From NCBI GenBank assembly GCA_036504155.1, contig DASXVQ010000049.1, positions 10,952 to 74,951 of the forward strand: a stretch of 64,000 nt of DNA. The letters are read 5' to 3'. Position 1 is the stretch's first letter; each line of letters opens with the position of its first letter. Under the pieces are notes generated by a model. The model made no database searches and was not told the DNA's origin. It saw nothing but the letters and a program-made list of their open reading frames with translations. Positions 12,127 to 63,328 of the stretch are shown here, in pieces. A program made the position numbers and the translations under genes. The stretch is from Myxococcales bacterium (GTDB taxonomy: Bacteria > Myxococcota > Myxococcia > Myxococcales > UBA5297).

Positions 12127-12789
12127 ATGGCCATCGCCTTCTTCGACCTCGACCTCACCGTCCTGGCGCGCAACTCCGGCACCCTCTGGGTCAAGTCCGA
12201 GCTGCGCGCCGGATACATCTCGCGCTGGCAGGCCCTGAAGGCCTTCGCCTGGCTCACCCGCTACCATTTCGGCTTCGCCCGGCTCGAGGACGCCCTGCTC
12301 GAGAGCATCTCCAGCCTCACCGGCAAGCTCGAGACCGACGTCGTCGCGCGGACCCTGGCCTTCTACGAGGCCGAGGTGCGCCAGCTGGTGCGCCCCGGAG
12401 CCAAGGCCGCGCTCGAGAAGCACCGCGCCGCCGGCGACAGGCTCTGGCTGCTCACCTCGTCGTCGAACTACCTCTCCGATGCGGTCGCCGCCCAGCTCTC
12501 GCTCGACGGCTCGCTCTGCAACCGCTTTGAGGTCGACTCCTCGGGCCGCTACACCGGCCGGCCGGCCGGGCCGCTCTGCTTCGGGCCGGGCAAGGTCGAC
12601 GTCGCGATGGCGTTTGCGAAGGAGAGGGGCGTCGGGCTCGCGGACTGCACCTTCTACAGCGACTCCGCCTCCGACCTGCCCATGTTCGAGGCGGTGGGGC
12701 GCCCGGTGGCGATCAATCCGGACCAGCGGCTGCGGCGCACGGCGATCCAGCGCGGGTGGCCCGTCGAGGACTGGGGCATGCCGGCGTAG
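12127..12789 (+). CDS. HAD-superfamily hydrolase, subfamily IB (SerB/phosphatase-like)
   Basis: The N-terminal FFDLDLT (DxD) motif is present. There are conserved S/T and K/D motifs (LLTSSSNYL, FYSDSASD). Confidence 0.8.
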   Translation: MAIAFFDLDLTVLARNSGTLWVKSELRAGYISRWQALKAFAWLTRYHFGFARLEDALLESISSLTGKLETDVVARTLAFYEAEVRQLVRPGAKAALEKHRAAGDRLWLLTSSSNYLSDAVAAQLSLDGSLCNRFEVDSSGRYTGRPAGPLCFGPGKVDVAMAFAKERGVGLADCTFYSDSASDLPMFEAVGRPVAINPDQRLRRTAIQRGWPVEDWGMPA

Positions 12790-12819
12790 GCGCACTGCCT
12801 GGTCCTTTCCCGCCTCGCA

Positions 12820-13230
12820 TTCGCTGCACTACCCCTGCCTCCCGATCGCTGCCCTTCCCCCGCCTCGCCTTCGCTGTCCCAAACCGCCTCGCCTTCCCCG
12901 CCCCACCCCCGCCCCACCCCCGCCTCCCCTTCGCGGATGGATCGCAGCGAACGAGCACGAGTGAGCTCACGGCTCTGGGGAGGGGCTCCTTTCTGCCCGT
13001 CGCGACCTCCTGCTCGACACGGAAAGTCCGCTCGCGTGTCTTTTCCCGTGTCGCCGAGAAGGCCGCCGAAGGCAACCCACGGGCCCCTCCCCAGAGCCTG
13101 GTGTTCGCCTGCTTCGATCTCCGGGTCCATCCGCGAAGGGGAGGCGGGGGTGGGGCAGCGAAGCTGGGGCAGCGAAGCTGGGGCAGCGAAGGCGGAGCGG
13201 CGCAGGCGGGGCAGCGCAGGTGAGCGGGTC
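12820..13230. repeat. ~410-bp imperfect nested palindrome; the C-rich left arm (ccgcctcgccttcgctg repeats, ccccaccccc) mirrors the G-rich right arm (gcagcgaagctgggg x3); inner hairpin gacacggaaag...cttttcccgtgtc
   Basis: Read directly. 12919-12985 is the reverse complement of 13081-13148, and the outer arms are related through the ccttcgctg motif. G4-type runs (GGGG N GGGGG N GGGG) lie on opposite strands of the two arms. It sits between the HAD gene and the sigma-54 activator. Confidence 0.55.
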
Positions 13231-13258
13231 GAACCCGAAGCTGGCTGGCGACCTTGAC

Positions 13259-13306
13259 CCCTGTCAGGATTGACGCCGAAGGACTGCCGGTCAAAAGGAG
13301 CGAGCC
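13259..13306 (+). promoter_or_regulatory. candidate promoter/RBS of the sigma-54 activator gene (ttgaccc...ttgacgcc -35-like boxes; AAGGAG 6 nt before the ATG)
   Basis: Sequence motifs only. Confidence 0.3.
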
Positions 13307-14770
13307 ATGGCGCGCGACAAGGGTCCCGGACGCGGGTGGATCGACGTCACCAAGCCGATGCAGACCCTGGCCGAGCCGGTCTTGGTCGAGGCGCCCTACC
13401 ACCGCGTGCCGCGGGCGGCGCGGGTCTGCCGCGACGGGGCGGGCGAGGTGGTGATGTCGCTGCACGCCGACCGCACCTACACGCTGGGGCGGGCGCAGGA
13501 CGCCGACATCGTCTTCACCGGCAACCACGTCTCGCGCTACCACGGGCTCCTGGCGCTCAAGGACGAGCGCTGCTGGACCTTCCGCGACATGGGCAGCGTC
13601 AACGGCACGGTGCTGGTGCGCCCCGACGGGACCCGGGTGCAGGTCAAAGGCGCCGAGGTGCCGGTGCAGGCCGGCGACATCCTCTACTTCGCCCACGCCG
13701 ACACCGCCGACAAGGTGGAGCTGCTCGCCGACGAGAGCCGGACCCGGTCGGGCCCGGGGTGGCGCTCGAAGGCCTCGCGGCAGCTCGAGGAGTTCATCAC
13801 CATCTCCTCCGGCCACGAGCTGGCCATCGTGCTGCTGGGCGACTCGGGCACCGGCAAGACCTGGGTCGCCCGGCAGATCCACGACCGCAGCGGCGCCACC
13901 GGGAACTTCGCGGCCATCAACTGCGGCCGGCTGGGCAACGAGCACAACGAGCTGCACAGCGAGCTGCTGGGCCACGTCAAGGGCGCCTACACCGGCGCGG
14001 CGACCGACCGCGTCGGCAAGATCCCCTTCGCCGAGGACGGCACGCTCTTCCTCGACGAGGTGGAGAGCATGCGCCGGCCGGTGCAGGACTTCCTCATCGA
14101 CGTGCTCGACCGCCGCACCGAGATCACGCCGCTGGGCGCCCCGCCGTCGGCCCGCCGGCCCGTCCCGCGCTTCCGGCTCGTCAGCGCCTCCAAGGTCCCG
14201 CTGGGCGAGGCCGGGCTGCGCCAGGACCTGGTGCAGCGGCTCGCGGTGGGGCAGGTCTTCAAGCTGCCGCGCCTGGAGGAGCGCAGCGAGGACATCCCCG
14301 CGCTGGTCGGCGCCCTGCTCCTGGAGGCCAAGGCCACCTGGGGCATCGAGGGCGCCTTCGCCCCCGACGCCATGGACCTGTTGAGCACCCGCACCTGGCC
14401 CGGCCAGCTGCGCGAGCTGCGCGCCACCGTCGAGGCGCTGGTGCAGACCTCCTCGGCCAAGGCCAAGCTGCGCGGCAACCCCGCCGACCACGTGAAGGTC
14501 TCGCTGGCCGACCTCGAGGAGTACCTCGACCAGCGCGCCAAGGTGCTCGGCGCCTCGCAGTCCGGCTCCTCCCCGACCACCTCCTTCCCGGCGGTCGGCG
14601 GCGGCGCGGCCGCGGCGGCCCCGCGCAAGCGCCCCGCGGACCTAACCGAGGAGGAGATCCGCGCGGCGCTGACGCGCAACCAGTTCAAGAAGCAGCGCTC
14701 CGCCGACGAGCTGGGCATCGCGCTCAACACGCTCAAGGCCTGCATGCGCAAGTTCGGCATCCCCGGCTGA
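13307..14770 (+). CDS. FHA-domain sigma-54-dependent transcriptional activator (bacterial enhancer-binding protein)
   Basis: It has an N-terminal FHA domain (TYTLGRAQDADIVF...SRYHG), AAA+ Walker A GDSGTGKT, the GAYTGA sigma-54 contact motif, an R-finger region, and a C-terminal Fis-type HTH (ADELGIALNTLKACMRKFGI). Confidence 0.9.
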   Translation: MARDKGPGRGWIDVTKPMQTLAEPVLVEAPYHRVPRAARVCRDGAGEVVMSLHADRTYTLGRAQDADIVFTGNHVSRYHGLLALKDERCWTFRDMGSVNGTVLVRPDGTRVQVKGAEVPVQAGDILYFAHADTADKVELLADESRTRSGPGWRSKASRQLEEFITISSGHELAIVLLGDSGTGKTWVARQIHDRSGATGNFAAINCGRLGNEHNELHSELLGHVKGAYTGAATDRVGKIPFAEDGTLFLDEVESMRRPVQDFLIDVLDRRTEITPLGAPPSARRPVPRFRLVSASKVPLGEAGLRQDLVQRLAVGQVFKLPRLEERSEDIPALVGALLLEAKATWGIEGAFAPDAMDLLSTRTWPGQLRELRATVEALVQTSSAKAKLRGNPADHVKVSLADLEEYLDQRAKVLGASQSGSSPTTSFPAVGGGAAAAAPRKRPADLTEEEIRAALTRNQFKKQRSADELGIALNTLKACMRKFGIPG

Positions 14771-14897
14771 GCCCCCCGCCGGCGTCTCCTCGCTCGGGAG
14801 AGCGCCGCGGGCCGCGCCCTCCGGCTCTCTCGCCGGGGAGGCCCGGAGTGCGCCCGGCCTTCCGGAGGGTTTGGAGACGAGGTCGGGCGAGTGCACG

Positions 14898-17357
14898 ATG
14901 CCTCCCGTGCGCCCCACACACTCCCCGAGTCCCTGCCGGCTGCGCCGCGCGTCTGCACTCTGCGCGGCGGCCTCGGCCTTTCTCGTCCTCGCCGGCTGCC
15001 GCGACTTCAAGGTCCCGGACCTCAAGGTCGAGAAGGCCCCCGTCGTCACCGACTTCGAGCCCAGGAAGGCCTTCGCCTGGACCGAGCTGCAGATCTACGG
15101 AGAGAACTTCGACCTCAAGCCCGAGAACAACGCGGTCCTGCTCGCGGGCGGCCTGACGGTGCGGGCCCACCCCAAGAAGCTCAGCGACACGGTGTTCGAG
15201 GAGCCGACCACCACCAAGCTCTACGTCTGGATCCCCGAGGCGCTGCAGGCCGAGGGCCCGATCAGCGTCACCACCCCGACCGGGACCAGCCAGCCCACGG
15301 AGGCCTCCTTCAAACCGATGGGCTACGGCCACCCCATCTACGGCACCAAGGTGGTGGACGTGCGCTTCCGCCACAAGCCGGTGGGCCTCTACGACAGCCC
15401 CGAGACGGTCCTCATCGCCTCCACCCTCTTCAACCAGCTCGTCAACGACACCGGGAAGTTCAAGCGGCTGGACGGCCGCGCCGTCGCCTTCGGGCGCGCC
15501 CCGGTGCCCGGCGAGGCGCTGGTCGCCGTGCGCACCGACGAGGGGCAGGGCGTCCTGGTCCTGGTGGACGGCGCGACCGGCGAGCCTCGGGCCAGGTCGG
15601 CGGGCGAAAAGATCGTCGAGGCCCTCGTCGTGGCCAGCCCCGAGGGCCAGCCCGTCCGCACCGTCGGCACCGGGCCGTACGGGCAGCACCTGCTGCGCAC
15701 CTGGCAGCGCGTCCCCGCCCCGCCCGAGCTGGACAGGCTCGAGCCCAAGGACACGCAGCTCGAGAACCTCACCCGGGTCCTGGGCGGCGCGGCCGACGGG
15801 ACGGGCACGGTCTACCTGGTGGCGACCGAGGCCAGGAACGACGCGGTCAAGACCGTGCTGCTGGCGGTCTCCTCCACCGGCGAGGTCTCGACCCGCTGGG
15901 AGCCCAACGGCATCGGCGAGCAGGACGACCGCCCGGTGGACCCGACCGGCCCCATCGCCGTGGTGGAGACGGCCCAGGGCCCGTACGCCGCGCTGGGGAT
16001 GGCGGACGGGGACCTGACCTTCGTCAACCTGACCGACGGGAGCGCGTGGCACGAGCTGCTGGTCTCCTTCGGGGAGGTGGGAGCGCTCGTCCGCGGCGCC
16101 AAGCCGGGCAAGGTGGTGCTGACCAAGCCCGTGGACGGCTCGGTCCTCCAGTACGACGTCTCCACCGCCTCGGTCGACTGGGCCGTCCAGATCCGCGGGG
16201 AGCCCACCGTGCTCGACGTCGCCCCGGACATCGGCGAGGGCGAGGTCGCCGTGGGCAACAACGAGGACAACGGGGTGGACATCATCGAGGCGGACACCGG
16301 GCTGTGGGTGGGCCGCATCTCCTTCAGCCTGGGGCTGGGCAGCGCGGCCCAGGGCGAAGGCGGGCTGGTGGCTCCCTACTCCTACTACCCGGAGAAGCTC
16401 CCCTTCGTGATCCACGTGCTCGCGCGCTCCGCCGGGATGGTCCTGGCGCTCGACGCCAGCTCGCTCGACCTGGTGCGGACGTATGAGCTCGCGACCGAGA
16501 CCGAGGACCAGAAGCCGGTCTCGGAGCCCCTGCGCCTGATGGTGACGCACGACCTGCGCACCCTCGTCGTCCACGCCAAGGAGCTGGGCATCCTCGACGA
16601 GAAGACCGGGCGGGAGCGCATCCTGGTGACCGGGCTGCCCATCGCGCCGACGCACGTCGCTTCGCTGCCCGACAACGGGGTGGTCGTGGGCACTCCCACC
16701 ACGGTGACCCTCTACCAGTGGCAGGGCGAGGAGCACCTCGTCTACGCGGGCCACGTGGCGCTGAAGGATTCGACGCTGGCGGCGCTGGGCGTGTGGGAGG
16801 ACGTCGAGGACGACGAGGCCCGGACCAGGAACCTCGAGATCATGGTGACCCGGAGCACCGCGGCCGGGTACGTGGTCGACTTCTACGACCCCAACGTGCT
16901 CGCCCTGAGCGGCGGCTCCCGCCACAAGGCGCCGCTGGCCCCGGAGATGGGCGACTTCCTGGGCTCGGCCACCATGCTCCAGGGCCCGGTGCTGGCCTTC
17001 GGCCGCTCCATGCTCGAGACGGAAGCCGGCGCGGTGCTGCCGGCGATGGTGGAGTGGAAGGACATCCTCGCGCCGGTCCGCAATCCGCCGCAGGAGCCCC
17101 TCTACCTCCCGTCGGAGCTCGACTCGCCGGTCATGGTGGGCGGGACCCCCGACGGCCGCTACTTCGCCTGGATGAGCGAGCGGCAGGGAGTGCACGTGGT
17201 GCGGCTGGTCGAGTACGACCCCAACTACTGGCAGCAGGCGTGGGTCTGGTCCACCTACCAGCTGGAGAACCGCGGCTCGAGCCTGACCTTCGACCCCAGC
17301 GGCCAGTGGATGTACGTCGCCATCCCCAAGCTCGACCTGCTCAGCGTCTTCCAGTAG
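14898..17357 (+). CDS. lipoprotein with N-terminal IPT/TIG domain and large beta-rich body (paralogue of 52702..55245)
   Basis: ATG at 14898. Lipobox AFLVLAGCRDFKVP. IPT-like segment VVTDFEPRKAFAWTELQIYGENF. Long ORF with GC3 bias. Confidence 0.75.
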   Translation: MPPVRPTHSPSPCRLRRASALCAAASAFLVLAGCRDFKVPDLKVEKAPVVTDFEPRKAFAWTELQIYGENFDLKPENNAVLLAGGLTVRAHPKKLSDTVFEEPTTTKLYVWIPEALQAEGPISVTTPTGTSQPTEASFKPMGYGHPIYGTKVVDVRFRHKPVGLYDSPETVLIASTLFNQLVNDTGKFKRLDGRAVAFGRAPVPGEALVAVRTDEGQGVLVLVDGATGEPRARSAGEKIVEALVVASPEGQPVRTVGTGPYGQHLLRTWQRVPAPPELDRLEPKDTQLENLTRVLGGAADGTGTVYLVATEARNDAVKTVLLAVSSTGEVSTRWEPNGIGEQDDRPVDPTGPIAVVETAQGPYAALGMADGDLTFVNLTDGSAWHELLVSFGEVGALVRGAKPGKVVLTKPVDGSVLQYDVSTASVDWAVQIRGEPTVLDVAPDIGEGEVAVGNNEDNGVDIIEADTGLWVGRISFSLGLGSAAQGEGGLVAPYSYYPEKLPFVIHVLARSAGMVLALDASSLDLVRTYELATETEDQKPVSEPLRLMVTHDLRTLVVHAKELGILDEKTGRERILVTGLPIAPTHVASLPDNGVVVGTPTTVTLYQWQGEEHLVYAGHVALKDSTLAALGVWEDVEDDEARTRNLEIMVTRSTAAGYVVDFYDPNVLALSGGSRHKAPLAPEMGDFLGSATMLQGPVLAFGRSMLETEAGAVLPAMVEWKDILAPVRNPPQEPLYLPSELDSPVMVGGTPDGRYFAWMSERQGVHVVRLVEYDPNYWQQAWVWSTYQLENRGSSLTFDPSGQWMYVAIPKLDLLSVFQ

Positions 17358-17591
17358 CCGCCGCCAGCAGCCGCCGCGCGGCCCCGTGCCCGTGCCCGTG
17401 CCCGTGCCCGGGATCGCCTGGGTCGCGGAATCGCCCGGGCCGCGGGGTCGCCGGGAGGGCGTGGACGCGCCCTGAAGCGCAGTCGAGCGCCTCCTCGGTT
17501 GCGCCCGGCCCGTGCGCGGAAGGCTTTAGCGCCTCTCCGGGTTGGAGCGACCCGAACAGTCCAGGCGCAGGCGCGCCGGCTTCGGAGGTAC

Positions 17592-18623
17592 ATGACCTTC
17601 TATTCCCGAATGGCAATCGTGGCGGCCGTCCTGTTGGCGAGTGGCCGGGCCGCGGCGGAGGTGGTCTGGCGCGGGGACTTCGAGTGCGGCGACCTCTCCC
17701 AGTGGACCAAGGCCCAGGCCGTCAGCCCCGACCGGCTGGAGGTCTTCGAGGGCGGCTCCGGGCAGGGCGGCCGCTACGCGCTCAAGGCCACGGTGGTGCA
17801 GGGCGACAACCCCATCGGCGCCAGCGGCAACCGCAACGAGCTGACCTACACGAGCTACGAGGCCAGCGGCACCGAGCGCTTCTACCGCTGGCAGACCAAG
17901 TTCGCCGACGACTACCCCTCGGCCGACGCCTGGCAGCTCTTCACCCAGTGGCACCACGAGGGCCCCTCCGGCTCGCCGCCGGTCGAGTTCGTGGTGCGCA
18001 AGGAAGAGATCTACCTGAACATCGTCGGCGAGCGCGTCTGGGGCATGCCGCTCGAGCGCGGCCGGTGGATCGACTTCATCTTCCACGTGAAGTGGTCGCC
18101 CGACCCCGCCGAGGGTTTCGTCGAGCTGTACGTCGACGGGAAGAAGGTCCTCGAGAAGCTGCCCAGGGGCACCCAGTTCCCCGGCGAGCTGAACTACCTC
18201 AAGCAGGGCCTCTACCGCGACGCGAAGATCCAGGAGACCGGCGTGGTCTTCCACGACGGCATGACCATCGGGACGTCGCTGGCCGACGTGATGCCCGAGG
18301 CGGCCGCCGCCGCCGGGCCGGGCGCGGCGGCTCCGGTCGGGCCCGCCGCTCCCCAGGCCGGCGCCGCAGCGCAGGCCGCGGCGCCCGGAGGTGCCCAGGC
18401 AGCGTCGCCGGCCTCGCCCAGCGCGCCGCACCAGGCCGCGTCCGGCGCCATCCCTTCCGGCGACCCGAACCCTGGAGGAGCGCCCTACGCCGGGGCCGGC
18501 TGCAGCTCCGCCTCGGGCGAGGCGCCGGTGCTCTTCCTCGGCCTCATCGTCGGGCTCGCCCTGCTCGTCCGCCGCCGCGCCGCGGCCCGCTCCACCGCCG
18601 CTGGCCGCAGGAACCGCCTGTAG
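17592..18623 (+). CDS. secreted polysaccharide-lyase-like (PF14099/PL20-like concanavalin-fold) protein with MYXO-CTERM anchor
   Basis: It has a signal peptide and motifs GNRNELTY...RFYRW...QWHHEG...SPPVEF...ELYVDGK. The C-terminus GAGCSSASGEAPVLFLGLIVGLALLVRRR is a MYXO-CTERM signature. Confidence 0.7.
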   Translation: MTFYSRMAIVAAVLLASGRAAAEVVWRGDFECGDLSQWTKAQAVSPDRLEVFEGGSGQGGRYALKATVVQGDNPIGASGNRNELTYTSYEASGTERFYRWQTKFADDYPSADAWQLFTQWHHEGPSGSPPVEFVVRKEEIYLNIVGERVWGMPLERGRWIDFIFHVKWSPDPAEGFVELYVDGKKVLEKLPRGTQFPGELNYLKQGLYRDAKIQETGVVFHDGMTIGTSLADVMPEAAAAAGPGAAAPVGPAAPQAGAAAQAAAPGGAQAASPASPSAPHQAASGAIPSGDPNPGGAPYAGAGCSSASGEAPVLFLGLIVGLALLVRRRAAARSTAAGRRNRL

Positions 18624-18648
18624 CCGGCCGGGCCGTGCTGGCGCCGCG

Positions 18649-19260
18649 CTACGCCAGCATGCCCCGGAAGTAGACCTCGATGGCCGTGTCCACGGAGGCC
18701 TCCAGGTCGAACGAGGCCTCCGCGGTCGTCCAGCGCAGGAGCAGCTCCTTCACCGCCCCCACGATGCAGACCGACAGCGCCACGGGCTCCAGGCTGCGGA
18801 CCACCCGGCCGCTCTGCTGGGCCTGGGCGATGTAGCGGGCGGAGACCTGGACGACCTTCTCGAAGAACTCGCTCACGCGCTCCTGGGTCTCGGTCCCCAG
18901 GGATTCCCGCAACATCACCTTCACGAAGCACTTCACCTCCGGCTCGCGCGCGAGCGCCCGGACCGAGTCGCGGTAGAGCTGCCGCAGCTCCTCGCCCGGC
19001 AGGTCCATCGAGATGTCCAGGGTCTCGATGACCGCGTCCAGCTGGCGCAGGTAGGTCTCGACGATCATCTTCAGGAGATCGCCCTTGCCGGTGAAGTGCA
19101 GGTAGAAGGTCCCGCGCGCCGCGCCCGCGGCCTCGATGATGTCGTTGATGGAGGTCGCGGCGAAGCCCTTCTCGGCGAACAGCTTCAGCGCGGCGGCCAT
19201 GATCTCGCCCTGACGCTTGAGGCCGTCCTTGCGCTTCACCCTGGGGGCGGTCGCTTCCAT
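18649..19260 (-). CDS. TetR-family transcriptional regulator
   Basis: ATG at 19258-19260. The N-terminal HTH is LKLFAEKGFAATSINDIIEAAGAARGTFYLHF. It is 203 aa. The ORF-track 1277-aa ORF is this frame running antisense through the GRE gene. Confidence 0.85.
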   Translation of the reverse strand: MEATAPRVKRKDGLKRQGEIMAAALKLFAEKGFAATSINDIIEAAGAARGTFYLHFTGKGDLLKMIVETYLRQLDAVIETLDISMDLPGEELRQLYRDSVRALAREPEVKCFVKVMLRESLGTETQERVSEFFEKVVQVSARYIAQAQQSGRVVRSLEPVALSVCIVGAVKELLLRWTTAEASFDLEASVDTAIEVYFRGMLA

Positions 19261-19295
19261 TTCTCTCCTGGGGCTAGGGCCTGCGCCCGGCGCCC

Positions 19296-22200
19296 CTACG
19301 CATAGCAAGTCCGGTTGATGATGACCTTCTTCAGGTCGTCGGAGAGGTCGTTGAAGTAGGCGCAGTAGCCCGCGATCCGGACCAGGAGGTAGGGGTGCTT
19401 CTCCGGGTGGGCGTACGCCTCCAGGAGGATCTCCCGGCTGATCACGTTGGGCTGGAACTGCATGCCGCCCTGGTCGAAGTAGGTCTTCACGATGCCGGCG
19501 AGGTTCTTCACCCCCTCGGGCCCGTCGAAGAGCGCGGAGTCGATGGTGAAGGTGACGGTGGTGCCGTTGGGCGCGTACCGCCGGAAGTCGACCCCGACCT
19601 CGGAGTTCAGGGCGGAGAGCAGGTCGGCCTGCTTCATCCCGTAGTGCGGAGTGAGGCTGTTGGCCAGCGGGACGCCGCGCAGCCTCCCCGACGGCAGGGC
19701 CGGCGTCTTCAGGCCGTAGACGATGTTGACGTTCAGGGCGTAGTAGCCGGCGGCGTAGATGCCGTCGCGCGGGCAGTTCGGGACCGACCGCAGGGCGTCG
19801 ACGTAGATCTGCAGCGTCCGGTTCATCCACTCCTGGGGCCTGCGCGAGGTGTCGTCGCCGAACTTCGGCACCGCCAGCAGCGCCGTGCGGATCTCCTGGT
19901 TGCGCGCCCCGACGAAGTCGGCGTCCAGCGCCGCGAGGACCTCCTCCAGGCGGTAGAGCCGCTGCCGGAAGACGACCTCCTCGAGCGCGTGGAGCGAGTC
20001 CGCGACGTCGGTGATCCCCACGGCCTGGATGCCGCTGCTGTTGAGCCGCGCGCCGCCGTCGTAGGCGTCCCTGCCGCGCTCGACGCATCCCTTGAAGAGC
20101 GAGGAGGCCAGCGGCGTGGTGAAGCCCTCGCGCAGCGCCTTCTCGATCCGCTGGTGGTCGGCGAGCACCGAGCCCGCGAGCCGGTTCAGGCGCGCCTGGA
20201 AGCGCTCGAGCAGCTCCTCCATCGTCGCCGGCGGGCCAAGGGCCAGCGGCCGCTGCCGCCGCTCGTGCAGCTCGACGGCCTTCCTCGACGCCGCGGACGC
20301 GAGCCGCGCGAGGCGCCCGTCGCCGCGGCAGGAGTGCTCCACGAACCGCGTCTGCAGCTTGAGCAGCTGGTCGGCGAGGCCGAAGCTCCACAGGTCGCTC
20401 TCGTCGCCCCGGAGCGCCTGCAGGAACGGCAGCGCCACGTTCATGTTGGCGCAGTCGGTGTTGCCGAAGTGGTCGTCGGACGCGTTGGGCTCCACGCAGC
20501 CGACGATGGCGTAGTTCCGGGCGTCCTCGACGGTCGTGGCGTAGTGGCGCTGCAGCGTGTCCACGTAGACGTGATCGTTGTACAGGGCCGGCATCGGGGC
20601 GCCGGTGAGGTACACCTCGGCCAGGCGCTCGAGATACTCCGGCGGGCTGTCCCGGTGGACCCGCGCCGTCATGTTCACGGCCAGGGGCTGCAGCTCGCAG
20701 ATGTCGAGGAGCATGTAGGTGACGTCGTTGGTGGCGTCCTTGCCGTCCCTGCCCATGCCCCCCGCCGTGACGGTCTGGTCGGTGGACTGGGTCTCGAAGA
20801 GCCGGCCGATCCGCAGGAAGCTGTCGCCGTCGCTGAGCAGGATGGCCTCGTCCATCTTGAGGACGAAGAGCGCCAGCAGCTCCTTCGCCGCCTCGAAGTC
20901 GAGCAGACCCGCCGCCCGGTCGCGGGCGAAGTACGGGTAGAGGATCTGGTCGAGCCGCCCCAGCGACACCGCGTTCTCGTACGACTCGAGGCACAGCGCG
21001 ATCTGCAGGAAGAGCATGCTCTGCAGCGCTTCGCGGTAGGTGCGCGCGGGGAGCCTGGGCACGCGGGCGCACGCCGCGGCGCCCTCCTCCAGCTCCCGCC
21101 GGCGGGCGGGGTCGCGCTCGCCCGTCGCCAGGCGCGCCAGGTGGTCCGAGTACCGCTGGGCGAAGGCCTCCAGCCCCTCCAGGGCGATGAGCGCGCCGCG
21201 GTAGAAGTCCTGGTCGTTCTCGGGATTCTCCCGCTGCGCCCGGCGGATCTCCTCGGCGATGCCGGTGGTGCCCAGCGTCAGGATGCGCTCGAAGTTGACG
21301 ACGAAGTGCGCGATCGCCGCCAGGTTGTTGTTGAACCCGGCCCGCATCTCCGCGCAGCGGGCCAAGGTCTGCAGCAGGCCCTTCAGCGTCGGGTTCACCT
21401 TGGTGAGCAGGCCATGCCGCGCCCAGAACGGGAAGATCTCCGTGTAGAAGGCGAGGCGGTCCTTCCAGGAGCACTGGAAGGACACCGGCGCCAGGCGCTC
21501 CGTCTTGTGGAGCAGCAGGATCAGCAGCGCGCCGAAGTGCTCCTCCCAGACCTGGGCGCCGACGCGCTGCGCGGTGAAGTTGCCGAAGAGCAGCTCCTGC
21601 GGATGGATGGCGATCTGCTTGTGCTCCAGCACGTAGGCCAGCCGCCGCGCGCGGTGGATGGGGGTCGGCTGCCCGAAGCCGTGCTTGCGGTAGAAGCGCG
21701 TCTTGAGCTTCGAGGACTCGAGGCACAGGTGGTAGTCGCTCTGCCGGATGGCGTCCCGGATGGCGTGGACGCGCGGGCTGAAGGACGCGCGGCGGCGCGG
21801 CCCGCCCAGCGCGGTGCAGTGCGCCGCGATGCCCTGGGCCCGGAACCTCGCCACCGCAACATTCACCGCCTCCTGGCTCTGGGCCGGAGTGACGAGGCCC
21901 AGCGAGGCCCGCTCGATCGAGAGCCGCCGCGCCTTGTCCACGTGCAGGTCGTGGTACTCGAGCAGCTCGATCGACTCGAAGCCTAGCGAGCGCAGCAGCT
22001 CGGCCGTCGCGCGCACGCCCTGCTCGGAGTCGTTGAGCCCCGGGACGACCACCGTGCGGAACCGCAGGTTCGCCTTCAGCTCCACCAGCCGCCGCAGGTT
22101 GCTGGCCACCAGCGTGCCGCTCTGCCCGGTGAGCCTGCGGTGGAGCACGTCGTCGCCGACGACCTTCAGGTCCACCAGGAAGAGGTCCACCAGCGGCGCG

Positions 22201-22625
22201 ACCCGGGCGACGGTCCGCGCCGGCGCGTGCAGGGACGTCTCGACCGCGACGTGGAGGCCGCGGTCCTTGAGCGCCGTCAGCAGGCGCACCAGGCTCTCTT
22301 CGCCCTGCACGAGCGGGTCGCCGCCGCTGAGCGTGACCCCGCCGCCGGTGGACCGGTAGTACTCGCGGTCCCGCCCGACGACCTCGAGGATCTCCTCGAG
22401 CGAGGGACCCTTCTCCGCCGGCGTGCCCGGGTCGGCCTGGAGCGCCTCGGGGTTCTGGCACCAGAGGCACCTCAGGTTGCACCCGCGGAAGAAGATCGTG
22501 GTGCGGACGCCGGGACCGTCGTGCACGCAGGTGCGCTGGATCTTGAGGACGTCGAGCCCGCTGGCGCTCTCGTCCTGCGAGGTTCCACCCGCGAGAACAG
22601 AGAGATGCGCTTGCGTGGTCTGCAT
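19296..22625 (-). CDS. fused glycyl-radical-enzyme activase (radical SAM) + glycyl radical enzyme (PFL2/glycerol-dehydratase/CutC-like family), single 1109-aa polypeptide
   Basis: The N-terminal ~280 aa carry the C-x3-C-x2-C motif (GCNLRCLWCQNPE) and the GGDPL motif of GRE activases. They are followed directly by a full GRE body: a PFL2-type N-terminus (RVHAIRDAI...LCLESSKLKTRFYRKHGFGQPTPIHRARRLA), the single-Cys/Glu active site AIVGCVEPN, and the glycine radical motif RIAGYCAYF near the C-terminus. There is no stop between the domains. Confidence 0.85.
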   Translation of the reverse strand: MQTTQAHLSVLAGGTSQDESASGLDVLKIQRTCVHDGPGVRTTIFFRGCNLRCLWCQNPEALQADPGTPAEKGPSLEEILEVVGRDREYYRSTGGGVTLSGGDPLVQGEESLVRLLTALKDRGLHVAVETSLHAPARTVARVAPLVDLFLVDLKVVGDDVLHRRLTGQSGTLVASNLRRLVELKANLRFRTVVVPGLNDSEQGVRATAELLRSLGFESIELLEYHDLHVDKARRLSIERASLGLVTPAQSQEAVNVAVARFRAQGIAAHCTALGGPRRRASFSPRVHAIRDAIRQSDYHLCLESSKLKTRFYRKHGFGQPTPIHRARRLAYVLEHKQIAIHPQELLFGNFTAQRVGAQVWEEHFGALLILLLHKTERLAPVSFQCSWKDRLAFYTEIFPFWARHGLLTKVNPTLKGLLQTLARCAEMRAGFNNNLAAIAHFVVNFERILTLGTTGIAEEIRRAQRENPENDQDFYRGALIALEGLEAFAQRYSDHLARLATGERDPARRRELEEGAAACARVPRLPARTYREALQSMLFLQIALCLESYENAVSLGRLDQILYPYFARDRAAGLLDFEAAKELLALFVLKMDEAILLSDGDSFLRIGRLFETQSTDQTVTAGGMGRDGKDATNDVTYMLLDICELQPLAVNMTARVHRDSPPEYLERLAEVYLTGAPMPALYNDHVYVDTLQRHYATTVEDARNYAIVGCVEPNASDDHFGNTDCANMNVALPFLQALRGDESDLWSFGLADQLLKLQTRFVEHSCRGDGRLARLASAASRKAVELHERRQRPLALGPPATMEELLERFQARLNRLAGSVLADHQRIEKALREGFTTPLASSLFKGCVERGRDAYDGGARLNSSGIQAVGITDVADSLHALEEVVFRQRLYRLEEVLAALDADFVGARNQEIRTALLAVPKFGDDTSRRPQEWMNRTLQIYVDALRSVPNCPRDGIYAAGYYALNVNIVYGLKTPALPSGRLRGVPLANSLTPHYGMKQADLLSALNSEVGVDFRRYAPNGTTVTFTIDSALFDGPEGVKNLAGIVKTYFDQGGMQFQPNVISREILLEAYAHPEKHPYLLVRIAGYCAYFNDLSDDLKKVIINRTCYA

Positions 22626-22776
22626 GGCTTGCTCCCAGGTCGCCGGCCTAACATGGACTCGCAGTCCATGTTAGCACGGGCTCGGAAGCTAGCGGCGGCC
22701 TGGCCCTGCTCGCCGAGGAGTGTGGCAGGCTTCTCGCTCCGCTCTTGACCGGCTCTGGCTCCTGGGAGGACACGCC

Positions 22777-25092
22777 ATGCGGTTCCTGCTGCGCTTGCTC
22801 GGGTCGCGCCTGCCGCGCACCGAGGGACGGCTGGGCGCGCCCGTGCGCTCCGAAGTGGCGATCCGCCGGGACCGCCACGGCATCGTCTACGTCGAGGCGC
22901 GAGACGACGACGACGCGTTCTTCGGCCTGGGCTTCGCCGAGGCGCAGGACCGCGCCTTCCAGCTCGAGCTCTTCGTGCGGGCCGCCCGCGGAACGCTCTC
23001 CGAGCTGGTGGGCGCCGAGATGCTCGACGCCGACCGCCTCGCCCGCCGCCTGGGCTTCCTGCGCAACGCCCGCGCCCAGGTGGGCAGGCTGCCCGCCGCC
23101 GCGCGGGCCCAGCTCGAGGCCTTCGCCCGCGGCGTGAACTTCGCCGTGCGCCAGGGGCCGCGGACCCACGAGTCGGTGCTGCTGGGCGCGCCGCCCTTCG
23201 TCCTCGAGCCCGCCGACTCGCTGGCGGTGGTGCAGTTCATCGCCTTCGCGCTGTGCTCCAACTGGGACGCGGAGCTGGCGCGCCTGCGCGTGCTGCTCGC
23301 CGACGGCCCGGAGGCCCTGATCGCGATCGAGGCGGCCGACCCTGCGCTGCTCGCCACCGAAGAGGGCTCGCGCCTGGAGCGGGACGCCCGCCTGCTGCAG
23401 GCTGCCGACGCGCTGGCGTCCGAAGCGGGGCAGCTGCTGCGCGTCGGCCCGTCCGCGGGCGCTTCCAACAACTGGGTGCTCGCGCCGTCGCGCACCACCA
23501 CCGGCCGTCCCCTGCTCGCCTGCGACCCGCACCTGTCGCCGATGCTGCCCGCCTACTGGTACCTCGCCCACGTGCGGACCCCGGAGTGGGCGATGAGCGG
23601 CGCCTTCTTCCCCGGGCAGCCGGTGGCGAGCTTCGGGCACAACGAGACGGTGGCCTGGGGCTTCACCGCAGGCCACCACGACAACACCGATCTCTTCGTC
23701 GAGCGCCTGTCCGACGACGGCACGAAGGCCTTCCGGGAGGGCCGGTGGGAGGGCTGCGAGGTGCGCGACGAGGTCATCCGGGTGCGCGGCAGGCCGGACG
23801 TGCACGAGCGGGTGGTCGTCACGGCGCGCGGGCCCATCGTCACCCCCTGCCTATCGACCGGGGGACCGGCCCTCTCGATGCGGGCGACGTGGATGGCGCC
23901 CCGCCCGTTCACCTCCTACCAGCTCTTCCGCGCCGCCACGGTGGCCGAGGCCAGGGAGTTCTTCCGCTCCTACCCGGGAGACTCCGAGAACCGGCTCTTC
24001 GCGGACGTGAACGGGACCATCGCCTGGCAGCTGGTCGGCGACGCGCCGGTGCGCCGCGGCGGCCACGGCCTGGTGCCGATGCCCGCCTGGCACGGCGACG
24101 CAGGTTGGGAGAGCGAGCCCCTGCCTTTCGAGTCGATGCCGGGAGTCACCGACCCGCCCGAGGGCTTCCTGGCCACCGCCAACCAGGCACCGGCGGCCCC
24201 GACGCCTTCGTTCCTCGGCGCGGACTGGCTCGACGGCGGCCGCCACGCCCGCGTCGTCGAGCTGCTCGCGACGAAGGAGAAGTGGGACCTCGAGTCGGCG
24301 ATGCGGATGCAGCTCGACCGCACGACCGTGTACTGGAAGGCGCTGCGCGAGAAGGTGCTCTCGGCGGTTCGCGGATCCGCCGCCACGCAAGCCGTCGCGC
24401 TGCTCGAAGCCTGGGACGGCGCGGTGGACCCGGGCTCGACCGCGGCCTCGGTCTACGAGCTGTGGTTCGCGGAGCTGATGTGCCGCGTCTGCCGGGCCAA
24501 GGCTCCCCGGGCCTGGCGCGCCGCCCTGGGCGAGGGCCTCAACGCCCTGTTGCCCCACGGGATGATGGGGCTGAGGCGCTCGGCCCAACTGGTGCGGCTC
24601 GTCCAGTCGCAGCCCGACGGCTGGTTCGACGGCGGCTGGCCCGCCGAGATCCGCGCCAGCCTCGACGCCGCGGTCGCGCGGCTCGAGCGGGCCGCCGGGC
24701 GCGACCCGAAGCGGTGGGCCTGGGGAAAGGTCCGGCCGCTGGTGCTGACGCACCCGGTGGGCACCAAGCCGGTGCTCGGCAGCCTCTTCAACCTGGGCCC
24801 CATCGCCTTCGGAGGCGACGGGAGCACCATCCCGCAGGCCTCGGTTCCCTTCGACGAGCCGCTGGCCAACCCCATCGGCGTGCCGAACCTGCGCATGGTC
24901 CTCGACGTCGGGAATTGGGAGGCGAGCCGCTGGGTGCTCGCCGGGGGCCAGTCCGGCAACCCGCTCTCGGCGCACTACGGCGACCTTTTGCCGATCTGGG
25001 AGCGCGGCGAGGGCGTGCCGATCGCGTGGTCGAAGGAGTCGGTCGCCGAGGCTGCGCGCGAGCAACTGACCCTGGCACCGACCCGCGGCTGA
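22777..25092 (+). CDS. penicillin-amidase (Ntn-hydrolase S45) family acylase, possibly an acyl-homoserine-lactone acylase
   Basis: It has the N-terminal YVEARDDDDAFFGLGFAEAQDRAFQLE motif, the nucleophile motif GASNNWV, and a ~770-aa length typical of the PvdQ/QuiP/penicillin G acylase family. ATG at 22777. Confidence 0.85.
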   Translation: MRFLLRLLGSRLPRTEGRLGAPVRSEVAIRRDRHGIVYVEARDDDDAFFGLGFAEAQDRAFQLELFVRAARGTLSELVGAEMLDADRLARRLGFLRNARAQVGRLPAAARAQLEAFARGVNFAVRQGPRTHESVLLGAPPFVLEPADSLAVVQFIAFALCSNWDAELARLRVLLADGPEALIAIEAADPALLATEEGSRLERDARLLQAADALASEAGQLLRVGPSAGASNNWVLAPSRTTTGRPLLACDPHLSPMLPAYWYLAHVRTPEWAMSGAFFPGQPVASFGHNETVAWGFTAGHHDNTDLFVERLSDDGTKAFREGRWEGCEVRDEVIRVRGRPDVHERVVVTARGPIVTPCLSTGGPALSMRATWMAPRPFTSYQLFRAATVAEAREFFRSYPGDSENRLFADVNGTIAWQLVGDAPVRRGGHGLVPMPAWHGDAGWESEPLPFESMPGVTDPPEGFLATANQAPAAPTPSFLGADWLDGGRHARVVELLATKEKWDLESAMRMQLDRTTVYWKALREKVLSAVRGSAATQAVALLEAWDGAVDPGSTAASVYELWFAELMCRVCRAKAPRAWRAALGEGLNALLPHGMMGLRRSAQLVRLVQSQPDGWFDGGWPAEIRASLDAAVARLERAAGRDPKRWAWGKVRPLVLTHPVGTKPVLGSLFNLGPIAFGGDGSTIPQASVPFDEPLANPIGVPNLRMVLDVGNWEASRWVLAGGQSGNPLSAHYGDLLPIWERGEGVPIAWSKESVAEAAREQLTLAPTRG

Positions 25093-25164
25093 GCTGGTCC
25101 CCGAATGGCGCTCATTCTCCCGGCGGCTTGTCGATGACAAGCCAAACCTCGGTGGCTCGGAGCG

Positions 25165-25282
25165 CCTCGACCAGCGCGCCAAGGTGCTCGGCGCCGCGCG
25201 CAGTCCGGCTCCTCCCCGACGACCTCCTTCCCGGCGATCGGTGGCGGCGCGGCCGCCCGGAGGGTTGGACACGAGGTCACCG
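25165..25282 (+). pseudogene. remnant copy of the 3' end of the sigma-54 activator gene (~95% identical to 14524-14622, then matching 14862-14886) in the intergenic region upstream of mfd
   Basis: Direct alignment by eye: cctcgaccagcgcgccaaggtgctcggcgcc...cggctcctccccgac..cctccttcccggcg in both. It is not part of a long ORF. Confidence 0.65.
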
Positions 25283-25471
25283 GGGGCTTCCCACCGCCCG
25301 GGGCCTCGACTTCTTCGTCCTCACGTCGTTGTTCCGCTTCCCGATCGACTACTCGTTTGGACGCTCGGTTTCCGAGCGGCTAGCTTGCGTCTGCCTGGCC
25401 GCTTGGCCCCCTTCCTGGATTGCGGCCTTGACGCGGGAATGAACCGGGGCCATCAACTCGGTTCCTGGTAG

Positions 25472-29200
<3,729 letters not shown>

Positions 29201-29674
29201 GCGACTCCGACTTCGACGGCCTCGCCCCCCGACTGACGACTCGCGTGTCCTCTGCGCTCTTCACCCTCCGTCCGACTGGCGCGCCTGGCGGCTGCGCCTC
29301 GGAGTCGTCTATCCTCACTGCCACTTCGAGGGGCGGACAGGCATCGGGCCTCGCTGGCTGACCTCGGCGATGGGACTCCTCGGCCGCTTCGGCTTCCAAA
29401 GACCGCCGTGGATTACGGCTTCGTTCCTCCTAGGCGCCACCACCAGCTTGCCGGGGCTGACCGAGGTGAGGGACCTGTCGGTGCAGTGGACCGGGAGCAG
29501 CGCGACCGACCCGCTGGGCGTCTTCCTCTCGGCCTGGGACTCGGGGCGGTGGCGCGCGCTCACGAGCCCCGCCAACGATCCGATCACCTGGGCGACGGCG
29601 GACAAGACCGAGCTCCGGCGGCCGCAGGCGAAGCGCCTGCGGCCACTGGGCCCACGGCGGCGCGGAGCCGGTCG

Positions 29675-33933: not shown

Positions 33934-34205
33934 TGGCGGTTCTCCCCGAGTGAGCGGCGGTCGAGCGCGAGACCATACGACCGCCTGTGGGCCCCAACCA
34001 GGGTTCCTCGGCCGGAGGAGAAGTGGGAATCGGTTGTGGATTGAGGGGAGCGCGAGGGGAGACTGACAACCTGTGGGCCGCCCAGTGGACTGATATCGGG
34101 GGTGGTTGGCAGCAGGGGGTGGTCGGGAAAATCGCTCCTGGGGGCAGCCAGAGGCCTCGTTTTTCGAGCGACAGCACCCAAGACGGCTTTCCCGCCCTTC
34201 GCGCT

Positions 34206-34390
34206 CATGCAGCCGCCCTCGTCGCCTTCGCGCCATGCTCGAACTCCGCTGGGCTCATGTAGTCGAGCGCCGAGTGCCGGCGCTTCGGGTTGTAGAAGGC
34301 CTCGATGTAGTCGAACACGTTCGCGTGAGTGCCCGGCGCATCGGCTTCCAGCACCACTCCGACTTCGACGCTGTCGAGCCAGGCCGAGGC
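34206..34390 (-). mobile_element. IS3-family transposase (rve/OrfB) C-terminal remnant
   Basis: The minus-strand translation ...NVFDYIEAFYNPKRRHSALDYMSPAEFEHGAKATRAAA* matches the conserved C-terminal end of IS3-family OrfB integrases (YNxxRxHSxLxYxSPxxFE). Only ~40-60 codons are recognisable and there is no upstream catalytic region. Confidence 0.6.
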
Positions 34391-34440
34391 GAGCCCGCGG
34401 TCACCGTGGACTCGGTCAGCCGGCTCAAGACATCGGTGCG
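34385..34440 (+). pseudogene. short internal fragment of an mfd-like gene (encodes AVTVDSVSRLKTS; ~90% nt identity to 27742-27786) abutting the IS3 remnant
   Basis: Direct comparison: cggtcaccgtggactcggtcagccggctcaagacatcgg versus mfd cggtcaccgtcgactcggtcagccgcctgaagacctccg. Confidence 0.5.
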
Positions 34441-40930: not shown

Positions 40931-41015
40931 CGAGACGGTCCTGCGCGAGCTGCTCAAGTGCCAGACCGTGGAGCTGCTCGAGGTCAAGGGCGTCGGGCCC
41001 AAGCTCAAGAAGTAG
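40931..41015 (+). pseudogene. duplicate of the last ~85 nt of mfd including its TAG stop (1-2 mismatches versus 29111-29200), lying in the intergenic region 11.7 kb downstream of mfd
   Basis: Direct alignment: gagctgctcaagtgccagaccgtggagctgctc[a/g]aggtcaagggcgtcgggcccaagctcaagaagtag. Confidence 0.7.
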
Positions 41016-41039
41016 GACGGAGGCGGCGCCCGCCCCCTG

Positions 41040-41305: not shown

Positions 41306-41325
41306 CTGTTGCCGCGCGGCAACAG
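41306..41325. promoter_or_regulatory. perfect 20-bp palindrome ctgttgccgcgcggcaacag, 12 nt upstream of the small-ORF ATG
   Basis: Read directly. Confidence 0.35.
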
Positions 41326-41374: not shown

Positions 41375-41410
41375 TGTCAGACAGCAGCCACTTGTCAGAC
41401 GTCTGACAAG
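41375..41410. promoter_or_regulatory. operator-like array: half-site TGTCAGAC (41375-41382) plus perfect 20-bp palindrome cttgtcagacGTCTGACAAG (41391-41410)
   Basis: Read directly. It is a locally AT-richer intergenic stretch between two minus-strand genes. Confidence 0.4.
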
Positions 41411-41581
41411 TGAACGTCGGCGGGCGGTCCCCGTCGTCCCCTGCCGCCATGCGCTTCCGGCGGTCTTTGCGCTTTTCAGCTTCGTTGTTCCCAGGCGCTC
41501 GAAGCCCCAGGTCGGGCGAATCCTGGCTCAGGGCCACAGTCGCGACGGAGCTTGAGCGTGAAGCCGCCGACCGCCAGGCGG

Positions 41582-52523: not shown

Positions 52524-52701
52524 GCGCGCTCGCCCGCCTGCACGGCCGCCCGGCCTCGAGCTGGGCCGCGGCCGGCAGATCTACCTTCTCCACGGCCGCG
52601 TCGAGTCCAACCACCCGAGGGAGAAGTTCGTCCCGGCAGCCGTCGCGAGGATCACCCGAGGCTTCTCGATCCCGCCCGCCGCGGCGTAGGCTCGGTCCGC
52701 G

Positions 52702-58111: not shown

Positions 58112-58737
58112 TCACGCTCCCCGCATCCGGCCTCCGGCCCTCACCTGGGCCGCGAACGAGTGACCCGTTGGGGAGTGGCCGGCTCGAAGCGGGCGCGCAG
58201 CTTTCCACGGCCGTCGAGCGTGGCCAGCCCCTCTCCCCTGGGAAGAGGAGGACGGCCTGCCGGCTGCGCCACCCCACGGCTGGGCGTGAGGCGGACGCGT
58301 CTACATGCCCGCCCGATCGGGACGAGCTCGCGCGCCTTCGACCCTCCGCCACCTCGCCGCCAGGACGCTGGCGATGGAGGCGCCGCCCCGCAGACGCTCC
58401 CCCAGGTTTCGTCGAGGCGGTGGACCGGGCCAGTAATACCCGCCCCGAGTTCGTTCCGGGATGCGCCGGCCTGAAAGAGCAGGCGACCTGGAACGAGGAT
58501 CGAACTTGCGGCTGCGTGTGCTGGAGGAGGGAGGGCGTGGTTCGGGGCGGGCGAAATCGCGCGCGCATTCGTGCCGGACTCACACGGACGGTGCCGAGCG
58601 CCTCTCTCCCGTGCTCTCATGGCCGAGGCCGTCGAGGAGGGGCTTCACCCGTGACGATCGCGCATCCACGCGCGCGCCGGCCCAACTCGAGCCCTCGAAC
58701 GTACTCCTCAACCACAGGCCGGATTCCGGAGGCTTCA

Positions 58738-60723: not shown

Positions 60724-61028
60724 GACTAGTACGAGCATCCGGAAGTTCGTTCAGGGTTCGAGAAGGCCGGTTGGGACTGCCGGCGGCTAAAGCCGCGCCT
60801 GAGGTTTCGAGGTCCGCCTTCGCGGACCAGGTGGCGACGGATGTCATGGGCGAGGACAAGGGCGCCCGGGTTCAGGTCTTCGCACTTCTGAAGCTCGGGT
60901 TTCCGACTTCGCGACCCGAGGCCACTGCAGCCCGCGAAGGCGGGCATCGCAATGTCAGGCGCGACTTCAGTCGCCGGCATTTGCAGGGCGGCACATCCCG
61001 GAACGAACTTGGGGCACCTCGTACTAGC
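60724..61028. mobile_element. MITE-like ~305-bp element bounded by 27-bp imperfect terminal inverted repeats (ctagtacgag-N7-aagttcgttc) with several internal short hairpins
   Basis: Left end ctagtacgagcatccggaagttcgttc is the reverse complement of right end gaacgaacttggggcacctcgtactag, with 20/27 matching. Internal palindromes are gcggctaaagccgc, tccgccttcgcgga, cccgcgaaggcggg and ggcgacttcagtcgcc. The element is lower GC than its surroundings. Confidence 0.45.
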
Positions 61029-63061: not shown

Positions 63062-63328
63062 AGGCGCGCGGGCGGGCGTAGCTCCGGGCCGCTCGGTCAG
63101 AACTCCGCTTTCTCGACGCCAAGACGCCAAGGCTCCAAGGGTCTGGGAATCACAGGCTCGCGGGTGCCTCGACGCGCCGGGGCGGAGCCGACGAGTCCGA
63201 CCGCGAGCGGCCTGCGCGCGGCAACCCGGCGTCATTGCGGACGAATCCCCCCGCCCGCCCGCGCTCGGCGGCCCAACTCGCGCCCTTCTCCGTACTCCCC
63301 TGCAAAGGCCGGACACCGGAGAGTCTGC

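Follow-up and report, generated by a model that had tools for sequence, protein, structure and literature searches.

The phage-related elements e14 and phage 21 integrate in the 3' end of the Escherichia coli gene icd and bring a replacement gene end with them, while the join-points of tandem duplications, remodelled by deletion, are known from Salmonella and E. coli genetics. The orphaned 3' regions found in Rhs, contact-dependent inhibition (CDI) and type VI secretion system (T6SS) effector-immunity arrays are attributed to homology-facilitated illegitimate recombination (Jackson et al. 2009 as cited in Kirchberger et al. 2017, PMC5361080), and many hotspots of horizontal gene transfer contain no recognisable mobile element, their flanking core genes recombining homologously often (Oliveira et al. 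2017, PMC5635113). Here, a stretch of 64,000 nt from a Myxococcales bacterium (assembly GCA_036504155.1, contig DASXVQ010000049.1, positions 10,952 to 74,951; hereafter the window) was analysed, in which the 3' end of a sigma-54 activator gene recurs downstream of a block of five genes and just ahead of mfd, the gene for the transcription-repair coupling factor (Table 1). Reading this arrangement as a mobile island was not supported; it is best described as a scar left by recombination, of a type already known in general.

The activator segments 14518-14613 and 14862-14884 (pieces 1 and 2 of copy A) are repeated as one uninterrupted stretch at 25159-25278 (copy B), 10.6 kb downstream, with both copies on the + strand. 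The pair was recovered in three ways, by a repeat search of positions 13000-27000, by MAFFT and by self-BLAST of the window. The repeat search reported two neighbouring families (14518-14558/25159-25199 at 93% and 14556-14613/25199-25256 at 95%), which MAFFT and direct reading resolved into a single segment split in copy B by a 2-nt insertion (GCCTCGCAG in A vs GCCGCGCGCAG in B). In the self-BLAST, piece 1 aligned with 25159-25256 over 98 columns with 6 mismatches and one 2-nt gap (E 9e-33); counted from 14524/25165, the alignment has 92 columns with 4 mismatches and the 2-nt gap, equivalent to 93.5% identity by BLAST or ∼95.6% for substitutions only. The longest unbroken identity between the copies is 30 nt, and self-BLAST found no third copy within the window. 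Piece 2 abuts piece 1 in copy B (25257-25278, CCGGAGGGTTGGACACGAGGTC), where it agrees with 14862-14884 at 21 positions, with 1 mismatch and a 1-nt gap. As this piece alone is too short for a window-wide E-value, it was judged by its local score against random 400-nt windows; the score of 17 was reached by 0 of 2884 windows (maximum 13.5). Since piece 2 directly follows piece 1 in copy B, copy B corresponds to copy A minus 14614-14861, a net deletion of ∼243–248 nt that includes the region coding for the Fis-type helix-turn-helix (HTH).

A first-pass annotation of this DNA had reported that the activator 3' end recurs at ∼95% identity in the same orientation and that the second copy occupies non-coding DNA just upstream of mfd. 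Both observations hold, the first with an E-value of ∼1e-32 and no other match in the window, the second because copy B lies between the acylase stop codon and the mfd promoter in no credible open reading frame (ORF). The location given was right, but the homology begins ∼6 nt sooner than the reported 14524/25165, at 14518, and ends at 14884/25278 rather than at 14886/25282.

What remains of the activator 3' end in copy B is dead: it begins 66 nt past the acylase stop (25092) and ends 194 nt ahead of the mfd start (25472), is frameshifted and has no start codon. Its coding changes relative to copy A comprise 2 synonymous and 2–3 non-synonymous differences plus the indels, all within a poorly conserved linker. 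At three of the four internal substitution sites copy B is derived and copy A has the state of an activator orthologue (L006), two of these three being GC-to-AT transitions; at the remaining site copy A is the derived copy. Over the same segment copy B is ∼95% identical to the resident copy A and 64–79% identical to orthologues. Scans with Rfam and for tRNA and transfer-messenger RNA (tmRNA) genes, sigma-70 promoters, terminators and a sigma-54 promoter pattern returned nothing at or near copy B or the block, so a functional RNA or regulatory role for copy B is without support. The conserved mfd promoter region lies downstream of copy B.

Two other assemblies bear on the region. A contig from a JGI metagenome agrees with the window at every position of 12863-35092 and therefore runs through both copies. 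In a separate Logan assembly (run SRR11794808), a contig covers exactly 14525-25194 and is interrupted where A and B are identical over 30 nt. As the identical ends of the Logan contig could also be produced by a circular, excised form of the block, this form was considered; it was rejected as the primary explanation, a k-mer break being expected at the repeat and the JGI contig spanning both copies.

Similar relics, referred to here as ghosts, derive from mfd. The last 79 nt of mfd, stop codon included, are copied in direct orientation 11.8 kb downstream at 40938-41016 (76/79 matches, no indel), and the homology ends 2 nt beyond the copied stop codon. This pair brackets 11.7 kb that encode a PKD protein, the transposase relic discussed below, a HEAT-repeat protein, a Ser/Thr kinase and an SPFH protein. 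Shorter ghosts originate from inside mfd. The one at 34396-34434 adjoins the transposase relic and all 4 of its internal differences from mfd are synonymous, as are both internal differences of the weak candidate at 22692-22720. The older ghost at 52558-52632 differs from mfd at all codon positions; its neighbours are a histidine kinase, a response regulator and a hypothetical gene, and hence it is not a helicase paralogue. Taken together, the three younger ghosts have 11 codon changes, 8 synonymous and 3 non-synonymous (2 of the latter at fragment edges), although these numbers are small. Of the ∼45 genes in the window, just two have served as sources, the activator for 1 ghost and mfd for 3 or perhaps 4, and all ghosts are in direct orientation within intergenic gaps at gene-block boundaries. 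No motifs common to the flanks of different ghosts, such as att-like cores or terminal inverted repeats, were found. In addition, 15 nt immediately downstream of the mfd stop (29205-29219) recur without a mismatch at 34358-34372, 23 nt ahead of the 34396 fragment. An exact search for the mfd product of the window found no record, probably owing to a start-codon translation mismatch.

Table 1. Coordinates of the repeat copies, ghosts and genes discussed in the text (window positions).
Feature	Position	Strand	Description
HAD hydrolase	12127-12789		upstream of activator
Palindromic intergenic element	12805-13221	.	∼420 nt; between HAD gene and activator
Sigma-54 activator	13307-14770	+	487 aa; FHA, sigma-54 AAA+, Fis-type HTH (HTH_8) (Pfam, NCBIfam); source of repeat
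Copy A, piece 1	14518-14613	+	encodes linker between AAA lid and HTH (...EYLDQRAKVLGASQSGSSPTTSFPAVGGGAA...)
A-only segment	14614-14861	+	remainder of linker, HTH-coding region, stop codon (14768-14770), 91 nt intergenic; not in copy B
Copy A, piece 2	14862-14884	+	intergenic; ends 13 nt before ATG of first block gene
Block gene 1, lipoprotein	14898-17357	+	819 aa; LAGC lipobox; no Pfam or NCBIfam match
Block gene 2, polysaccharide lyase	17592-18623	+	PF14099; MYXO-CTERM tail sub-threshold
Block gene 3, TetR-family regulator	18649-19260	-
Block gene 4, glycyl radical enzyme (GRE) fusion	19296-22625	-	1109 aa; radical-SAM activase fused to GRE of PFL2/glycerol-dehydratase family
Weak candidate mfd ghost	22692-22720	+	27/29 nt vs mfd 27039-27067; E ∼1e-4, borderline; GRE-acylase intergenic region
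Block gene 5, acylase	22777-25092	+	penicillin-amidase family
Copy B	25159-25278	+	non-coding relic of activator 3' end; 2-nt insertion, 1-nt deletion, 5–7 substitutions
mfd promoter-proximal region	25428-25471	+	conserved with L010; window-L010 alignment fails just upstream
mfd, transcription-repair coupling factor	25472-29200	+	1242 aa; source of mfd ghosts
mfd 3' end, proximal copy of second pair	29123-29202	+	last 26 codons and stop codon
rve_2 transposase relic	34205-34357	-	50-aa ORF; C-terminal rve_2 integrase-core domain, E 4.8e-7, above Pfam cut-off
mfd ghost	34396-34434	+	36/39 nt vs mfd 27745-27783; 7 nt past HEAT gene stop
mfd 3'-end ghost	40938-41017	+	between SPFH gene stop (40894) and convergent gene stop (41040)
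Older mfd ghost	52558-52632	+	63/75 nt vs mfd 28130-28204; between response-regulator gene and hypothetical gene

Gene order was compared with relatives, none of which exceeded ∼90% identity except contigs of the same organism (100% identical). Only three close orthologues of the activator were identified among 5.8 billion proteins (90%, 86% and 74% amino-acid identity; next match 46%). The gene following the activator differs between loci: in L006 and L007 it is a convergent isoamylase gene, and in L008 it is an orthologue of the block lyase (86% nucleotide identity) separated from the activator by a 291-nt spacer with no lipoprotein gene (L008 2422-2712 vs window 14771-17591), while the L009 contig stops just after the activator. 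Given the short spacer in L008, the 2.46-kb lipoprotein gene is an insertion/deletion difference within the "block"; no repeats were found at the edges of this difference. In L006–L009, nucleotide homology to the window ceases no more than ∼10 nt from the activator stop codon. When the intergenic DNA that follows this stop in L006, L008 and L009 was aligned sensitively with the DNA after copy A and after copy B, nothing exceeded shuffled controls, and thus the downstream flank of copy B is not tied to any relative. On the other side, L007 and L008 have a common orthologous 142-aa gene (80% amino-acid identity) upstream of the activator that is missing from the window, and the upstream homology of the activator loci to the window begins only at ∼13227-13238, just right of the palindromic element. 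Acylase orthologues (75–81% amino-acid identity; L001, L032 and L033) reside in unrelated contexts, L032 being from the same sample as L006, and a scan of GTDB representatives with the acylase returned four loci, none syntenic beyond the acylase itself. The five block genes are not a conserved unit in relatives.

As for mfd, in L010 (P0121), the only relative with the promoter-proximal sequence of this mfd, an orthologous HAD gene lies directly upstream of mfd, 316 nt apart, with no activator between; other homologues of the mfd N-terminus were mostly partial and distant. More distant myxobacterial mfd loci (L034 and L035) have different upstream neighbours, so the HAD-mfd adjacency is not phylum-wide. 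When metagenomes were scanned with the N-terminal part of mfd, all relatives returned were at ≤34% identity and the source contig itself was not among the matches. Adjacency of activator and mfd was seen in no relative (L006/L007, L008, L010 and the distant mfd loci), the L009 contig ending first. The ancestral order of activator then mfd that the first-pass annotation suggested thus finds no support in these relatives, none of which is conspecific, and is not refuted by them. Both the HAD-mfd interval and the site just after the activator are therefore variable. The lyase adjacency, on the other hand, is common to the window and L008 (87% nucleotide identity), and copies A and B are ∼95% identical compared with 64–79% between copy B and orthologues; together these place the activator-lyase adjacency before the A/B split.

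A gene end, cargo and a second gene end in this order require the far end of the cargo to be joined to a point inside the gene, a joint that displacement, tandem duplication with deletion and integrase-mediated insertion would each supply. The reading we favour, to which we give slightly less than an even chance, is that homology-anchored displacement, rather than a mobile element, left copy B behind. What was observed directly is the pair of repeats and its decay, the lack of mobility genes and the variable gene content beside the activator in relatives; from these we infer that the event was an insertion and not a duplication, who the donor was and how the DNA recombined. An incoming segment, from a closely related strain or a sister copy, would have brought an undamaged activator 3' end with cargo behind it (some or all of the five block genes, from lipoprotein to acylase). 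This segment would have paired by homology inside the activator gene, and the far end of its cargo would have been joined illegitimately at 25158/25159. The resident 3' end, not replaced but pushed downstream of the cargo, would have become functionless and decayed, acquiring its 2-nt insertion, 1-nt deletion and GC-to-AT changes and shedding 243 nt of HTH-coding sequence. With mfd as the anchor, the same process may have produced the mfd 3'-end copy and the smaller mfd fragments at other block boundaries.

Several features of the locus are consistent with displacement. For both the activator and mfd, a homologous segment, cargo and a second homologous segment starting inside the gene follow one another in direct orientation, and the homology ends where the cargo starts (for the activator, 13 nt short of the first cargo ATG; for mfd, 2 nt past its stop codon). 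Homology ending at the cargo boundary is expected if two arrangements differ only in what follows the gene, and is not expected of random deletion endpoints in a 10–12 kb duplicate. Second-copy cargo was not detected: 25279-25471 had no match anywhere in 14885-25158 at word size 7, and self-BLAST returned none after 41017. The outer junctions contain microhomologies (CTCG before GAG, 25155-25161 vs 14511-14519; CGAGAC, 40931-40936 vs 29108-29113), as expected of illegitimate joints, and equally of tandem duplication. That the ghosts come only from the activator and mfd, all in direct orientation and at block boundaries, fits a conserved gene acting as recombination anchor, and the mostly synonymous differences of the younger mfd ghosts may indicate that their sources diverged under purifying selection. 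The variable content after the activator (lyase in L008, isoamylase in L006/L007, lipoprotein here), the empty HAD-mfd interval of L010 and the absence of an integrase, tRNA gene or compositional anomaly were also counted in favour of displacement, as were the precedents of the Rhs, CDI and T6SS arrays (PMC5361080) and of hotspots without mobile elements (PMC5635113).

Other findings weigh against it. A conspecific "empty" site was not found, and hence insertion is not demonstrated. Because the activator-lyase adjacency predates the A/B split, displacement needs both a resident that had lost this arrangement and a donor that had kept it, making in-place duplication the more parsimonious alternative on gene order. 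The differences between copies B and A (2 synonymous, 2–3 non-synonymous) are uninformative, and the synonymous bias of the mfd ghosts could equally be explained by later allelic replacement of the functional mfd. Binned identity against the three orthologues revealed no mosaic breakpoint in the activator near 14518. Furthermore, the internal mfd fragments of 29–75 nt require extensive later deletion, and this organism is not known to be naturally competent or to take up DNA by another route.

The alternative of in-place duplication, which the first-pass annotation had also named and which we regard as the main and a serious rival, though rather unlikely, holds that the five genes always followed the activator and that 14518-25158 was tandemly duplicated by illegitimate recombination, creating the 25158/25159 junction, after which the second copy was cut to its first ∼370 nt and then to 120 nt. 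This account keeps the ancestral activator-lyase adjacency seen in L008 and requires no donor. The far greater similarity of copy B to the resident copy A than to any orthologue agrees with it, as do the derived state of copy B at three of four internal substitutions (the two GC-to-AT transitions being typical of neutral decay), the uniform composition across the region, and the presence of the novel junction itself, where the region downstream of the acylase is joined to activator position 14518. However, one duplication and at least two deletions are needed per ghost, the fragment ends would have to coincide by chance with the first cargo gene (activator) and with a point 2 nt past the stop (mfd), and no other trace of second-copy cargo remains. 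Nor does tandem duplication provide a reason for 4–5 independent events in ∼40 kb all starting in mfd or the activator, or predict the mostly synonymous differences of the mfd ghosts.

The first-pass annotation had chiefly taken the repeats as a footprint of site-specific integration at the activator 3' end. The geometry behind that idea is real (a gene 3' end, 10.3 kb with five intact genes, and a same-orientation copy) and is what insertion by recombination in the 3' part of a gene produces, yet an integrase-mediated island in the activator 3' end, with copies A and B as attL and attR and the integrase since lost, appears improbable. Such an island would account for direct repeats that duplicate a gene 3' end while the proximal copy keeps the gene intact, for an mfd pair that stops right after the stop codon, as in islands carrying a replacement gene end, and for post-activator content that varies among relatives. 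The repeats are imperfect, however (∼94–95%), and copy B has its internal 243-nt deletion. Searches against Pfam and NCBIfam identified no integrase or other tyrosine/serine recombinase, excisionase, relaxase or phage domain in the ORFs of the block, nor in those of the 64-kb window save one: a short ORF with an rve_2 domain, on sequence evidence an insertion sequence (IS)-type transposase relic, which is the only mobility-related sequence found and belongs to a different block. The intergenic gaps of the block, at 25–230 nt, leave no room for a decayed integrase, and no tRNA or tmRNA gene, Rfam family or att-like core was found. GC content is flat throughout (0.67–0.75), and a comparison of block and flanks showed no difference, GC content at third codon positions being 0.95–0.98 in the block genes vs 0.96–0.99 in the flanks (activator 0.99, mfd 0.96, HAD 0.97) with overlapping codon-usage scores. 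The cargo does not travel as a unit, as the L008 lyase occurs without the lipoprotein gene and acylase orthologues are found elsewhere in other contexts, and the internal mfd fragments do not suit an att-site model. Overall, the locus lacks three of the five features that define an integrase-mediated island (recombinase, composition or mobility genes, and cargo unit).

A further explanation is that the ghosts are templated patches, in which nearby sequence was copied into intergenic breaks by error-prone or template-switching repair while the neighbouring genes never moved. A template switch would indeed yield what copy B shows, two collinear pieces of copy A with 243 nt skipped between them, and the fragments are short (29–120 nt) and all intergenic. 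We nevertheless see only a slim chance of this, as all five fragments are direct relative to their source, two stop precisely where the source gene or its intergenic flank stops, a single gene supplied four of them, and several differ mainly at synonymous sites and were thus not copied from the present allele. Lastly, an assembly artefact or chance similarity is highly improbable even though the source is a metagenome-assembled contig and the Logan contig starts and ends with the same 30-mer as a circular molecule would, since the match is unique with an E-value of ∼1e-32, copy B differs from copy A every 20–30 nt with unique flanks within read length, the JGI contig threads both copies, and a 30-mer-bounded contig is the exact product of a k=31 graph at such a repeat.

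With respect to the block genes themselves, the initial labels TetR, fused GRE and acylase agree with the TetR family, radical-SAM/GRE fusion and penicillin-amidase-family acylase found here. The label "MYXO-CTERM lyase" stands as far as the lyase (PF14099) is concerned, the MYXO-CTERM match being sub-threshold, and the "IPT" label of block gene 1 is unconfirmed, as neither Pfam nor NCBIfam detected an IPT domain, although the lipobox is visible in the sequence. In the GRE fusion, the radical SAM activase occupies residues ∼30–270; the fused ORF scores under every NCBIfam equivalog cut-off. The divergent GRE-acylase intergenic region contains a perfect 11-bp inverted repeat with a 3-nt spacer at 22649-22673 (TAACATGGACT CGC AGTCCATGTTA), a plausible candidate operator for the adjacent TetR regulator.

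Other self-similar DNA was recorded in the window. The palindromic element between the HAD gene and the activator contains a perfect 31-nt inverted repeat (12911-12941/13126-13156) and, further in, a perfect one of 16 nt; iterated motifs of 11–25 nt make up the arms of the element, with GGGGCAGCGAAGCT repeated 5–6 times in tandem on the right and a complementary motif at ∼25-nt spacing on the left. It resembles a miniature inverted-repeat transposable element or a transposon end. The JGI contig breaks inside this element. A 744-nt direct repeat of 89% identity (58669-59404 vs 63260-63998), whose second copy is part of a gene encoding an FGE-sulfatase domain and runs off the window end, looks like a pair of nearby paralogous genes. 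An imperfect palindrome of ∼300 nt (68%) was observed at 60726-61027 and perfect palindromes at 41389-41412 (24 nt) and 41306-41325 (20 nt).

Most accessory genes of large bacterial genomes reside in hotspots without a recognisable mobile element, and their route of arrival has largely been inferred statistically, whereas scars such as copy B are direct sequence evidence of joining events. If displacement is true, such scars give block boundaries, the relative order of acquisition and the anchor genes in a lineage known only from metagenomes. Added interest comes from the neighbouring core gene mfd, which has left several similar scars. It is possible, though doubtful, that the surroundings of mfd are a layered, mobile-element-free acquisition hotspot with a readable history, in which mfd and the activator served repeatedly as one-sided homologous anchors for blocks of 5–12 kb. 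In that case the ghosts at 25159, 34396, 40938, 52558 and perhaps 22692 would mark successive block boundaries, and the region would provide physical evidence of homology-facilitated illegitimate recombination as a routine means of myxobacterial gene gain outside polymorphic-toxin loci. For annotation purposes, the five-gene block should not be called a genomic island and copy B should be treated as a pseudogene fragment. If copies A and B recombined with each other, the block would be lost and the activator cut short, without its DNA-binding domain.

Compared with known systems, the locus resembles each of them in part. As with e14 and phage 21 in icd, a gene 3' end is directly duplicated with the proximal copy intact and the distal copy a pseudo-3'-end; unlike them, there is no integrase, excisionase, phage gene, compositional signal or conserved core, the distal copy is without the HTH-coding part, and the block genes are not a unit in relatives. 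Like the tandem join-points of Salmonella and E. coli, the end of a segment is joined to a point inside an upstream gene and direct repeats result, but here nearly the whole second copy would have to have been lost, with endpoints that happen to fall at gene boundaries, and the recurrence at mfd is left unexplained. The locus shares with hotspots that contain no mobile element (PMC5635113) accessory blocks without mobility genes beside a conserved gene and a content that differs among relatives; the double homologous recombination described there leaves no scar, however, whereas here one end appears illegitimate and ghosts are left behind. The 3'-end displacement of Rhs, CDI and T6SS loci offers a similar layout, in which an intact gene is followed by new DNA and by a same-orientation orphan that starts in the gene 3' region, with no integrase, and in which several orphans can stack downstream of one conserved anchor. 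The anchors in the present window differ in being a sigma-54 activator and the housekeeping gene mfd rather than polymorphic toxin genes, the cargo consists of 5–12 kb of unrelated genes rather than a toxin tip and immunity gene, and the orphans are very short, have no function and are in decay, showing no sign of retention by selection; the pathway here is a proposed one.

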